Position numbers and translations under genes: made by a program. DNA of 64,000 nucleotides, from assembly GCF_053078305.1 (NCBI RefSeq), contig NZ_CP166879.1; one strand, given 5' to 3'. Positions 2,990-36,942 of this stretch are shown here, piece after piece. The notes beneath the pieces are model-generated. The model ran no database searches. It had not been told where the DNA came from and saw only the letters and a list, made by a program, of their open reading frames with translations. Every line of letters starts with the position of its first letter. The first letter of the stretch is position 1.

Positions 2990-3883
2990 TCAGCGAACGA
3001 CATCCGCCAGCGCCTCTTCTAAATCGTACCAGCGAAACGCAAAACCCGCTTCTTCCAGCCGTTTAGGCAGCGCGCGTTGTCCACCTAATACCAGTACTGA
3101 AGATTCGCCCATTAACAGTCGAATGGCGGTCGCGGGGACGCGCAAAATGGCCGGGCGATGCAGCGCATGACCGAGCGCATGGGCAAATTGTTCATTGCGT
3201 ATCGGGTAGGGCGAAACCATATTAAATGGCCCGCGCAGCTCGTTATCCAGCAGCCAGAGAATGCCGTTGACCATATCATCGATATGAATCCAGGCCAGAT
3301 ACTGCCGACCGGAACCAATCGGCCCGCCCAGGCCAAGACGAAACGGCGGCAGCATTTTACCGAGAATACCGCCATCCGGTGCCAGCACTACGCCGGTACG
3401 CAGCAGGCACACTCGCGTTTTGTCACTTTGCGCCCGGCAGGCAATTTCTTCCCAGCGGGCGCAGAGTTTATGGGTAAATTCGTTATGCGGCGGTTCCTCT
3501 TCGGTAACCACCACTTCACCTAAGTCGCCATAATAGCCCGTTGCCGAGCCGGAAATGAGTACCGACGGTGGCGTGTCGCTGGCATTAATCAAATCGACCA
3601 GTTTTTGCGTGATATTCCAGCGGCTTTGGCAGAGACGCTCTTTTTGCTCGTGAGTCCAGCGTTTATCAGCAATCGGTTCTCCGGCCAGGTTGATTACCGC
3701 ATCAACGCCGTTGAGGTTGCTTTGATCGGCAAGCCCTTGCCATAGTGTCACCCGAGGGCCGAGAACGGAACTGGCTTTCTGCGGGTTACGCGTCATTACC
3801 GTGATTTGATGGCCCAGCTCCAGCAAACGTGGAATCAAATGGCGACCAATTAATCCCGTCCCTCCGGTGATCACTATGTTCAT
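2990..3883 (-). CDS. yfcH: NAD-dependent epimerase/dehydratase family protein YfcH
   Basis: 297 aa; N-terminal Rossmann GGTGLIG motif; synteny downstream of folX. Confidence 0.85.
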
Positions 3884-3903
3884 GCAGCCTCCCGATATGG
3901 CGG

Positions 3904-4266
3904 TTAACGCTGCCAGCTTAAGGTCATGGATACCGAATCGGCGTAGCGCAGCGCGTGCAGTTTATCGATCTCCACTTCAGCATACGTCACCCAGTGATGT
4001 TCACGTGCGATATCGAGCACATCCTGAGTTAATTTTTCCAGCAAAGAGAAACGGTTATTCTCTACATGCTGAATAATGTTTTTCGTTACGGTGCGATAAT
4101 TCAGCGCATCGTTGATATCTTCGCTGGTGCGCGCTTTATCGGCGGGGTAGTGGATCGTCACATTGATAACAATATCCTGACGGTTGTTAATTTCTTCTTC
4201 CTTAATTCCGATAAATGTACGTAAACGAAGGTTCTTTATACGAATAATAGCGGCAGGTTGTGCCAT
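3904..4266 (-). CDS. folX: Dihydroneopterin triphosphate 2'-epimerase
   Basis: 120-aa ORF, FolB/FolX fold-sized protein, sequence recognised as FolX; conserved position. Confidence 0.9.
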
Positions 4267-4322
4267 TGCAGGTTCTCCGTTGTTTTACTTAGGATGAAAT
4301 AATACACGAGAACCTGTTTCTG

Positions 4323-5799
<1,477 letters not shown>

Positions 5800-34085: not shown

Positions 34086-35543
34086 ATGACAATAACTCCA
34101 CAAAACCTGATCGCACTGCTACCGTTGCTGATCGTCGGCTTGACGGTGGTGGTTGTGATGCTCTCCATTGCGTGGCGACGCAATCATTTCCTCAACGCTA
34201 CGCTCTCGGTTATTGGGCTTAACGCGGCGCTGGTTTCGCTCTGGTTTGTTGGCCAGGCGGGCGCTATGGACGTTACGCCGCTGATGCGCGTTGATGGTTT
34301 CGCCATGCTTTACACCGGGCTGGTATTGTTGGCGAGCCTCGCCACCTGTACTTTCGCCTACCCGTGGCTTGAAGGCTATAACGACAACAAGGATGAGTTC
34401 TACCTGTTGGTGTTAATTGCCGCGCTGGGCGGGATCCTGCTGGCGAATGCAAACCATCTGGCGTCTCTGTTCCTCGGTATTGAACTGATCTCTTTGCCGC
34501 TGTTTGGCCTGGTCGGTTACGCTTTCCGCCAGAAACGTTCGCTGGAAGCCAGTATCAAATACACCATCCTTTCTGCCGCAGCGTCTTCTTTCCTGCTGTT
34601 CGGTATGGCGCTGGTGTATGCGCAGTCTGGCGACCTGTCGTTTGTCGCGCTGGGTAAAAACCTCGGCGACGGTATGCTCAACGAGCCGCTGTTGCTGGCA
34701 GGTTTCGGTCTGATGATTGTTGGCCTCGGCTTCAAACTCTCTCTGGTGCCGTTCCACCTGTGGACGCCAGACGTATACCAGGGCGCGCCTGCGCCGGTTT
34801 CCACTTTCCTGGCGACGGCGAGCAAAATCGCTATCTTCGGTGTAGTGATGCGTCTGTTCCTCTACGCACCGGTGGGTGACAGCGAAGCGATTCGGGTGGT
34901 GCTGGCGATTATCGCCTTTGCCTCCATCATCTTCGGTAACCTGATGGCGCTGAGCCAGACCAACATCAAACGTCTGCTCGGTTACTCATCTATCTCTCAC
35001 CTCGGCTATCTGCTGGTGGCGCTGATTGCGCTGCAAACCGGCGAGATGTCGATGGAAGCGGTAGGGGTTTACCTGGCCGGTTATCTGTTCAGCAGCCTCG
35101 GCGCGTTCGGCGTGGTCAGCCTGATGTCCAGCCCGTATCGTGGCCCGGATGCTGATTCCCTGTTCTCTTACCGCGGTCTGTTCTGGCATCGTCCGATCCT
35201 CGCGGCGGTGATGACGGTGATGATGCTGTCTCTGGCCGGTATCCCGATGACGCTGGGCTTTATCGGTAAGTTCTACGTGCTGGCGGTCGGTGTCCAGGCA
35301 CACTTGTGGTGGCTGGTGGGTGCCGTGGTTGTCGGTTCGGCAATCGGCCTCTACTACTACCTGCGCGTGGCGGTGAGCCTGTACCTGCACGCACCGGAAC
35401 AACCGGGTCGCGATGCACCGTCAAACTGGCAGTACAGCGCGGGCGGTATCGTGGTGCTGATCTCCGCACTGTTGGTACTGGTGCTGGGTGTATGGCCACA
35501 ACCGCTGATTAGCATTGTGCGGTTAGCAATGCCACTGATGTAA
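34086..35543 (+). CDS. nuoN: NADH-quinone oxidoreductase subunit N
   Basis: 485-aa antiporter-like membrane subunit; last gene of cluster. Confidence 0.95.
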
Positions 35544-35562
35544 TCTGTTAGTTTGTAAGTCA

Positions 35563-35593
35563 GAAAGCCGCCGACATGTTCGGCGGTTTTTTT
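35563..35593. terminator. Bidirectional rho-independent terminator between convergent nuoN and downstream ORF
   Basis: aaagccgccgacatgttcggcggttttttt: 7-bp GC stem, 5-nt loop, flanked by A-run and T7. Confidence 0.7.
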
Positions 35594-35620
35594 ATGGTAT
35601 TTATAAAGAAATTAGAAGAG

Positions 35621-36097
35621 TTAATCCCACCAACAAATAACCGGATGCATACCCGCAGGGACCTCAACCCATCCATGATTCGTATCTTCTGACCATCCTT
35701 CCCAACACTCATCAGGGGCAATTTCTTCTACAAACCAGCTCTGAACTTCTTCTGGTGAAGCAGAAGTGATAACTAAAATACGTTCACTAAAGGGCCAGTC
35801 TGGGTCATCGAACATTGTAATCTCTACCAAAACATCACTGACATCGTTACGCTCACGAATTTTCTGTAAATGGTGATAGATAGTTTGCGGAGATTGTTCT
35901 GGAGTCACATTGCAACATATCGAACCGACGATATTATTGCCGATAAAAAAATCCTCAAGAGATAACAATGGACGCAGGGTATCAGGATCATTAACATCAC
36001 CGTTGATATTAACAAGTTGGGTAATGCGTTCTAAAGGTGTCATAATCATTCCTTGAAATAATTCATTCATCAAGTGAATGGTATTGTCTGAATTCAT
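35621..36097 (-). CDS. Hypothetical acidic cytoplasmic protein, 158 aa; family not recognisable from sequence alone (may correspond to yfbO/yfbP locus)
   Basis: Intact ORF with its own start, sits between nuoN terminator and yfbN; acidic, Trp-rich C-terminus (…ECWEGWSEDTNHGWVEV…VICWWD). Confidence 0.5.
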   Translation of the reverse strand: MNSDNTIHLMNELFQGMIMTPLERITQLVNINGDVNDPDTLRPLLSLEDFFIGNNIVGSICCNVTPEQSPQTIYHHLQKIRERNDVSDVLVEITMFDDPDWPFSERILVITSASPEEVQSWFVEEIAPDECWEGWSEDTNHGWVEVPAGMHPVICWWD

Positions 36098-36225
36098 TAA
36101 CGAATAAATAGAAACAACGCCATACGTCTTATTAGTTTCAGGAGTATCATAACATGGACGTTAAGCAGGAAATGCAGTTATACCATTGTTATATATAATA
36201 TCTTAAATATTTAAAGGCTTATGAC

Positions 36226-36942
36226 ATGGAATGGTTAAGTGAAATTCGCAAACTTCGGGAGAGCATATCTGTCGGTATCCAGGCTGCCAGGCGTTTGTTA
36301 GAGAAGACTGGTGGTGATGTTGATGAAGCCATTAAGTTGTTTCATATTGACCAAATCAATATATTGACGGCAAAAGTAGACGTCACTCATCAGGAGGCAG
36401 AGAATGTTTTGCTGGCGGCAAACTACGATATGGCAGAAGCTCTTCGGCGTATTGATGAACAGCGTTATACACTGACGGAATTGATTATACGTAAAAATAA
36501 GGATGCCGGAGATGCTTTAAGTAATATAGAATTAGCAATAACATATGAATGGAATCTGACATGCAAATTTTGGTTTGGTTTTAAGGCATTCCAGTCGCTG
36601 CCTCCACAATTACAAGCCTTTATGCTGGTATGTGAATGGCGTAACTATTGGGGATGGGAAGGCCTGGATAGTGCGTTATATTATGAGATGGACAATGTCC
36701 CCCAACAATTACAGGTAGTAGGCTTAGATGAAATGGCTAAAGTTATTGTTGTGGCGAGAAATCGTTATGATGAGTTAAGAGCACAAGGCAAAGAGCATAA
36801 TAAAATCATTAAAGATGATAAATTTAAAAAATTTATGAAGCACTGTGAACAACTGGATAGTGAAGTAGACTCTATATTACTGCAATTTGTGAAGGATAAT
36901 ATTGAGGTTTTCCCACGTCGCCACAACGGACACGATTTATAA
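36226..36942 (+). CDS. yfbN: Uncharacterized protein YfbN-like, 238 aa, with two N-terminal UBA/TS-N-like helical motifs
   Basis: Length and synteny match yfbN; repeated motif (GIQAARRLLEKTGGDVDEAIKLF / EAENVLLAANYDMAEALRRI) resembles UBA-like domains. Confidence 0.6.
   Translation: MEWLSEIRKLRESISVGIQAARRLLEKTGGDVDEAIKLFHIDQINILTAKVDVTHQEAENVLLAANYDMAEALRRIDEQRYTLTELIIRKNKDAGDALSNIELAITYEWNLTCKFWFGFKAFQSLPPQLQAFMLVCEWRNYWGWEGLDSALYYEMDNVPQQLQVVGLDEMAKVIVVARNRYDELRAQGKEHNKIIKDDKFKKFMKHCEQLDSEVDSILLQFVKDNIEVFPRRHNGHDL

Follow-up and report, generated by a model that had tools for sequence, protein, structure and literature searches.

A rare allele of Escherichia coli yfbO in a strain-variable islet beside nuoN, and its possible role as an orphan immunity-type protein

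What is the small acidic protein encoded beside nuoN in this genome, and what might it do? The window, by which we mean the whole 64,000-nucleotide stretch of DNA analysed, covers the E. coli nuoM-nuoN / yfbM-yfbL-yfbK region. Within it, the open reading frame (ORF) listing gives an intact 158-codon frame with an ATG start at 35621..36097 on the minus strand, the product of which ends in ...DECWEGWSEDTNHGWVEVPAGMHPVICWWD. The initial annotation described an unclassifiable, acidic and Trp-rich protein without transmembrane (TM) segments that is encoded convergently with nuoN, shares its terminator, and has a size and composition compatible with an immunity or antitoxin-like protein. The physical description is borne out by computation on the sequence: the 158-aa product has a pI of 4.1, 28 Asp and Glu residues against 6 Lys and Arg, 7 Trp (4.4 %), a GRAVY of -0.25 and no hydrophobic segment. 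The orientation is also as described, with nuoN at 34086..35543 on the plus strand facing the ORF. The features in and around the reading frame are as follows.

35562..35592, plus strand: GC-rich hairpin (13-bp stem) and T-run between the convergent nuoN and yfbO, from a terminator scan
35621..36043, minus strand: yfbO coding sequence in its most likely form, 140 aa, MTPLERITQ...CWWD, from the ORF listing, the PGAP coding sequence, homologue starts and the Shine-Dalgarno site
36044..36097, minus strand: 18-codon in-frame upstream extension MNSDNTIHLMNELFQGMI, probably 5' leader and not coding
36050..36054, minus strand: Shine-Dalgarno AAGGA inside the upstream extension, 6 nt before the Met19 ATG
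36098..36225, no strand: AT-rich divergent intergenic region between yfbO and yfbN (182 bp counted from the Met19 start; GC 36-38 %)

The true yfbO product is probably the 140-aa protein that starts at Met19. The ATG of this codon, at 36043, has AAGGA 6 nt upstream, and inspection of the sequence ahead of Met1 revealed no Shine-Dalgarno site. Nearly all homologues from Planctomycetota, Proteobacteria and Bacillota start with MTPLERI... at the position of Met19 and have lengths of 138-142 aa, the upstream 18-aa extension being missing from homologues outside Escherichia. In comparison with the K-12 allele, omega is 0.68 (almost neutral) for the 18-codon leader versus 0.29 for the body of the gene. 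The 140-aa length is also the one used by PGAP (in strain A16) and by UniProt for YFBO_ECOLI. It is this combination of ribosome-binding site, homologue starts, near-neutral leader and database length that leads us to prefer the shorter form.

The idea of a shared terminator survives in part. The hairpin is a canonical intrinsic terminator for nuoN, with its 13-bp stem and T-run on the plus strand, but on the yfbO strand only a poor T-tract comes after the stem, where the terminator scan made no call, so that it would act as a weak yfbO terminator at best. No sigma-70 consensus was found on the minus strand upstream of yfbO (36098..36225).

The protein proves to be classifiable. It is 88 % identical to K-12 YfbO over 158 aa and 90 % identical over 140 aa, it groups with YFBO_ECOLI in one 90 % cluster, and its close relatives carry the precomputed Pfam assignment PF27222 'YfbO' (function unknown). 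Membership of the YfbO family thus rests on full-length homology to the E. coli protein together with the PF27222 assignment of cluster relatives. The identical protein in strain A16 is WP_000188049.1, which PGAP labels "hypothetical protein", and identical copies occur on 650 contigs. That the reading frame is a genuine gene and did not arise by chance follows from homologues in other phyla with E values of 1e-40 to 1e-87 and from a dN/dS of 0.29 in comparison with the K-12 allele; yfbO is under purifying selection, and the window allele keeps all of the family-invariant residues. Its nucleotide sequence differs from that of K-12 yfbO by ~7 %, core-gene dS being ~0.06. Among 5,426 complete E. 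coli genomes, matches of at least 99 % to the window allele occur in 10 and matches to the K-12 allele in 964. The ORF is therefore a rare allele of a catalogued, uncharacterised gene. The initial annotation had allowed that an immunity role would fall if the ORF turned out to be yfbO and yfbO had a known function. The identity holds, yet yfbO still counts among the E. coli K-12 "y-genes" that lack an assigned function, and the suggestion is left standing by this comparison.

A separate observation concerns a 2,776-bp contig from a metagenome-assembled genome labelled 'Bacillota bacterium' (L013, JAEWTL010000023.1), whose YfbO shares 90 % identity with the window protein, as does the K-12-type allele. 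Most likely the contig is contaminating E. coli DNA that was assigned to the Bacillota assembly by mistake.

We characterized the family to which the protein belongs. An exhaustive HMMER search of 50 % identity clusters recovered 471 representatives at E<=1e-3 and 198 at E<=1e-10. Hits in genomes are patchy, with occurrences in Planctomycetes, Hydrogenophilales/Thiobacillus, Sphingomonadales, Myxococcales, Methylobrevis, Hylemonella and Desulfocapsaceae, and also on Priestia/Bacillus plasmids. Neither a tblastn search of 50,697 phage genomes nor IMG/VR yielded a homologue, and on this basis we rejected a phage origin of YfbO.

In a 72-sequence alignment the near-invariant positions are F32, F33, G35, N36, S41, I42, N45, V68, W83, P84, P110 and W138-W139-D140. 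The resulting motifs (FFxGN, GSI, WPF and a C-terminal WWD) are mostly aromatic or structural in character, and at no position of the alignment is a His, Lys, Arg or Glu conserved, an absence that speaks against an enzyme. An AlphaFold2 model built from this alignment has a pLDDT of 94.8 and a pTM of 0.89. The predicted fold is a sheet of five strands with four helices packed onto it and a long conserved loop formed by residues 34-51. A Foldseek comparison of the predicted structure, the check proposed by the initial annotation, returned no structural relative (best E 0.87 in the PDB and 0.13 in BFVD), and PDB sequence searches with the single YfbO sequence and the 72-sequence profile gave noise only. 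The model lacks the SUKH fold, so YfbO does not belong to the SUKH (SMI1/KNR4) superfamily. There was also no match in Pfam, NCBIfam or PADLOC; the Pfam scan is empty because the copy scanned did not include the PF27222 model. The Pfam scan gave no match to an Imm-family model and detected no HTH, RHH or AbrB domain. We regard the product as most likely a soluble protein of the cytoplasm, strongly acidic, with one alpha/beta domain and without a catalytic signature.

Some family members depart from the single-domain form, having N-terminal TM anchors or being fused C-terminally to other domains. A Pfam scan of the N-terminal parts of 10 YfbO fusion proteins was empty. In two of the proteins examined (P0106 / P0176) a ~230-aa N-terminal domain precedes YfbO, and this domain also exists as a free-standing family (291 hits, no Pfam assignment), with free-standing relatives in Variovorax, Undibacterium and Roseateles. 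At two loci of the domain family (L118, L119) it appears as conjugative-element cargo beside T4SS/conjugation genes and in a small-gene array, the contexts being otherwise uninformative.

In E. coli the gene lies in an islet of foreign appearance between two core genes, the remaining features of which are given here.

35550..37650, no strand: AT-rich, strain-variable islet of ~2.1 kb between the core genes nuoN and yfbM, from GC content and comparison of genomes
36226..36942, plus strand: yfbN allele, 238 aa, divergent neighbour of yfbO, from the ORF listing and PGAP
36937..37510, minus strand: SMI1/KNR4 (SUKH)-like gene, frameshifted into overlapping 106-aa and 92-aa ORFs, from the ORFs, sub-threshold Pfam hits and the PGAP name

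The GC content drops sharply from 55-62 % in nuo (nuoM/N) to 36-40 % across the islet, as would fit DNA gained by horizontal transfer at a hot spot. Across the 5,426 complete genomes the nuoN|yfbM site is polymorphic and is empty in most; yfbO is present in 993 (18 %) and absent from 82 %. The K-12 arrangement, found in ~964 genomes, consists of yfbP(TPR)-yfbO-yfbN with a ~258-bp 3' remnant of the SUKH-like gene between yfbN and yfbM. In ~10-11 genomes the site has the arrangement of the window, in which yfbO and yfbN are accompanied by a longer SUKH-like gene and yfbP is missing. Thus, the window allele shares with K-12 YfbO its position relative to yfbN, its length and the invariant motifs, but it is rare, lies next to nuoN with no yfbP, and has a longer SUKH-like gene as its companion. 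Two strains have yfbN and an intact 191-aa SUKH-like gene but no yfbO; an example is E. coli 2013C-4282 (L117; NZ_CP027579.1 155815-163447), which also has no yfbP at the site and in which the intact SUKH-like gene is at 3508..4083 of L117. This fourth islet type indicates that the islet genes assort independently. At least three combinations are drawn from yfbO, yfbP, yfbN and the SUKH-like gene, and the site therefore shows the variation in content between strains of one species that is expected of polymorphic-toxin immunity loci.

Divergence among the islet alleles also exceeds that of the flanking core genes, by a factor of 3-10. Relative to K-12, dS is 0.17 for yfbO and 0.72 for yfbN, as against 0.06-0.07 for nuoN and yfbM, and this excess points to separate histories through recombination or horizontal transfer. 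Homologues of YfbN are confined to Escherichia (61-92 % aa identity), and its only Pfam hits are weak UBA-like ones at the N-terminus (UBA_4, HYPK UBA). Because of this restriction, YfbN is not a co-evolving partner of the broadly spread YfbO. The SUKH-like gene has sub-threshold Pfam hits to SMI1_KNR4, SUKH_5 and SUKH_6 (19.4 bits against a threshold of 25.4), and its assignment rests on the PGAP name, SMI1/KNR4 family, together with these three SUKH-clan models. No toxin gene was detected in the window islet among the ORFs, Pfam hits and PGAP annotation, and PADLOC placed none of YfbO, YfbN, the SUKH-like ORFs, YfbM or YfbP in a known defence system.

We extended the analysis to the neighbourhoods of YfbO homologues outside E. 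coli, using precomputed gene calls where they existed; the GC3-based caller misses genes in islands of atypical composition, such as that of locus L004. This locus, which belongs to a 7.8-Mb genome, has an LHH toxin gene followed by two SUKH genes, YfbO and a small ORF; a Tox-REase-5, an Imm52 and another SUKH gene lie 6 kb away. YfbO is here the third gene after the LHH toxin, behind the two SUKH genes, and at none of the loci does it directly follow a toxin gene, where a cognate immunity gene would be placed. At a second locus (L071) a SUKH gene (SMI1_KNR4, 7e-17) lies 93 bp upstream of YfbO in a co-directional array with an IS transposase nearby, and at a third (L029) a SUKH gene (2e-11) lies 250 bp downstream. 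A bona fide SUKH gene thus adjoins YfbO at 3 of ~75 independent non-E. coli loci, a frequency that we estimate to be above chance because SUKH genes are rare in genomes. In other settings YfbO is one of ten co-directional genes for proteins of 133-184 aa, all Pfam-less (L112/L113), or belongs to a gene array with DUF4304 and DUF6678 on a Priestia plasmid.

Pooling of the immediate neighbours gives a plainer picture. Some 50 metagenomic loci (~50) supplied 113 flanking ORFs with a median length of 170 aa; 82 of them run in the same direction as YfbO. When these neighbours were scanned with Pfam, no toxin or immunity family recurred, HEAT and Cupin_3 occurring twice each and all other families once. 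At 14 genome loci YfbO is flanked mostly by unrelated housekeeping genes. No conserved partner gene emerged from an all-against-all BLAST of ORFs within +-5 kb at 23 loci, and a targeted check found no conserved downstream gene of ~100-130 aa. Because no neighbour is shared across distant taxa, no cognate toxin can be named. The search for toxin contexts around homologues that the initial annotation had proposed therefore yields the one LHH locus but no recurrent toxin family. As for an antitoxin, YfbO has no conserved adjacent partner in any taxon such as would characterize a type II system.

The explanation that we favour, with a probability of about 0.4, is that YfbO is an orphan, non-enzymatic, toxin-binding protein of the immunity type, carried in a decaying, strain-variable islet. 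This reading is favoured because of the SUKH neighbours, the LHH locus, the co-directional arrays of small genes, the variable islet and the domain fusions. Polyimmunity loci, as described by Zhang et al. 2012 (PMC3482391), consist of small same-strand genes, vary between strains, usually lack a toxin and include domain fusions, and several Imm families have conserved C-terminal Trp motifs. Judged by these characteristics, the contexts of YfbO appear to match polyimmunity loci and Imm families, and its fusion to a domain that also exists as a small free-standing protein follows the pattern of 'polyimmunity proteins'. We infer that YfbO would neutralise a protein toxin by stoichiometric binding. 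The target could be an effector domain delivered by rival bacteria, or it could belong to a mobile or defence element. As part of a horizontally acquired AT-rich islet at the nuoN-yfbM recombination hot spot, yfbO would have been retained without its cognate toxin as pre-emptive protection.

The likeness to known immunity systems has limits. Like the Imm proteins of PMC3482391, YfbO is small, acidic, alpha+beta and cytoplasmic, with a C-terminal Trp motif comparable to those of Imm1, Imm8 and Imm45, and like the genes of polyimmunity loci it is found beside SUKH genes, once at an LHH-toxin locus, in small co-directional arrays, at variable loci and in fusions. However, it matches no Imm HMM and is not named in the main text of that paper, its copies are mostly solitary among housekeeping genes, and in the E. 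coli islet the genes do not form a co-directional operon. The SUKH / SMI1-KNR4 immunity proteins, which are frequent neighbours, resemble YfbO in size, cytoplasmic location and alpha/beta class. Against an immunity role stand the 113 pooled neighbours, with no enrichment of Tox or Imm families, the 14 housekeeping-flanked loci and the lack of a conserved neighbour, as well as an E. coli islet that is toxin-free, of mixed gene orientation and furnished with a SUKH call that is below threshold. Thus, the antitoxin-like or immunity-like character proposed by the initial annotation gains from the SUKH genes at three loci, the LHH locus, the variable islet and the fusions but not from the pooled neighbourhoods, and yfbO may be a leftover immunity gene, with support that is weak to moderate.

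The rivals of this explanation differ mainly in what YfbO is supposed to bind. The one direct K-12 phenotype of yfbO comes from a droplet RB-TnSeq study, in which delta-yfbO and delta-yfbL mutants are reported to be specifically resistant to phage N4, with plasmid complementation reversing the resistance (bioRxiv 10.1101/2025.09.29.679331). This phenotype is not predicted by the immunity model. YfbO might instead be an envelope or phage-infection host factor that works with the M28 peptidase YfbL and binds a conserved cellular partner, so that its loss blocks N4. The strong loop motifs and the constant 140-aa length across phyla would also fit such a partner, and in another enterobacterial contig (L008) yfbO directly follows yfbL on the same strand. 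However, yfbL and yfbM are core genes whereas yfbO is missing from 82 % of complete E. coli genomes, outside the Enterobacteriaceae neither an M28 peptidase nor any other neighbour is conserved, the N4 support comes from a single preprint using Keio mutants, and yfbL in the window has itself lost its start codon. We consider a host factor unlikely. The partner could also be a toxin in a different conflict, if YfbO were anti-defence cargo of mobile DNA that blocks abortive-infection or defence toxins (such as retron effectors) by the same mechanism. Phages and prophages encode blockers of this kind, RacC against RcaT and Dmd against RnlA/LsoA, and yfbN was among the genes that when over-expressed blocked RcaT, the toxin of retron-Sen2; yfbO was followed up in the same study because it is linked to yfbN (bioRxiv 10.1101/2020.06.22.160242). 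YfbO resembles the RacC and Dmd blockers in that it is small, accessory and encoded by AT-rich foreign DNA, the adjacent yfbN scored as a blocker of RcaT, and homologues occur beside a phage terminase (L024), beside transposases (L025, L010, L071) and on a mobilisable plasmid. Yet yfbO itself fell below the significance cut-off of the RcaT screen (bioRxiv 10.1101/2020.06.22.160242), and the family differs from these blockers in being absent from the phage collections searched, with no BFVD fold or PADLOC match, which makes defence-toxin blocking quite improbable.

Other readings dispense with a toxin partner or treat YfbO as part of a pair. The most conserved part of the protein is the loop of residues 34-51, with Asn36, Ser41 and Asn45 near-invariant and Cys44 frequent, and many homologues are solitary among metabolic genes; both would suit a small enzyme or small-molecule binder using the FFxGN...GSIGCN loop (Ser41/Cys44). 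We think this very unlikely given that conserved His, Lys, Arg and Glu are lacking, the sole conserved Asp is the C-terminal Asp140, Cys44 is not invariant, no enzyme family or fold is matched and the metabolic context is inconsistent. A two-gene toxin-antitoxin or toxin-immunity pair made up of yfbO and yfbN is suggested by their adjacency, their common divergent AT-rich control region and their joint occurrence in two islet types. Their distribution largely refutes such a pair: strain 2013C-4282 has yfbN without yfbO, and YfbN is restricted to Escherichia whereas YfbO occurs in many phyla and never there with a YfbN-like neighbour. Moreover, the genes are divergent and not co-transcribed, neither product has a DNA-binding antitoxin domain, and over-expressed yfbN acts as a toxin blocker and not as a toxin, leaving very little room for this idea. 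Equally little credence goes to the view that the window ORF is a decaying or non-functional remnant. Its neighbours are indeed decaying, with the SUKH-like gene frameshifted and the yfbL start lost, and in an AT-rich islet the gene is probably poorly expressed, but its frame is intact, dN/dS is 0.29, the family-invariant residues are all retained and the identical protein is spread over 650 contigs.

Both the sequence and the family were already present in databases; the new elements are an argument from context for an immunity-like role and the apparent absence of a structural relative. To what was catalogued the analysis adds a likely length of 140 aa, a broad family, a confidently predicted fold with no solved relative, and a hyper-variable islet that includes a SUKH-type gene. 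If the immunity or blocker reading is true, YfbO would be a new family in the catalogue of inter-bacterial conflict genes, and the reading would supply a concrete hypothesis for both the N4 resistance of delta-yfbO and the blocking of RcaT by yfbN. If it is wrong, yfbO stays an ordinary accessory ORF. A wider form of the immunity reading, which we hold to be possible but doubtful, is that PF27222 is an unrecognised, widespread toxin-neutralising family, that the islet is a miniature, decaying and heterogeneous polyimmunity site and that the N4 and retron phenotypes reflect interference with toxin-like or effector-like proteins.

The surroundings of the islet show additional changes. In the window yfbL (minus strand, ~39237), a 1-nt deletion takes the G of the ATG start, the sequence being GCATATGAAAAAA in K-12 and GCATAT-AAAAAA in the window. 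A 311-aa GTG-initiated ORF is left, which lacks the first 12 residues, and in strain A16, which is near-identical, PGAP marks yfbL as frameshifted. The lost start is of note given that deletion of either yfbL or yfbO is reported to produce the N4 phenotype. The yfbO site has been described as an alternative insertion site of Stx phage (PMC3519850). Finally, in E. coli DSM 103246 (L116), which has an islet of the window type, an IS4-like ISVsa5 transposase gene (3878..5086) lies between yfbM and yfbL, and this insertion is further evidence of local instability.
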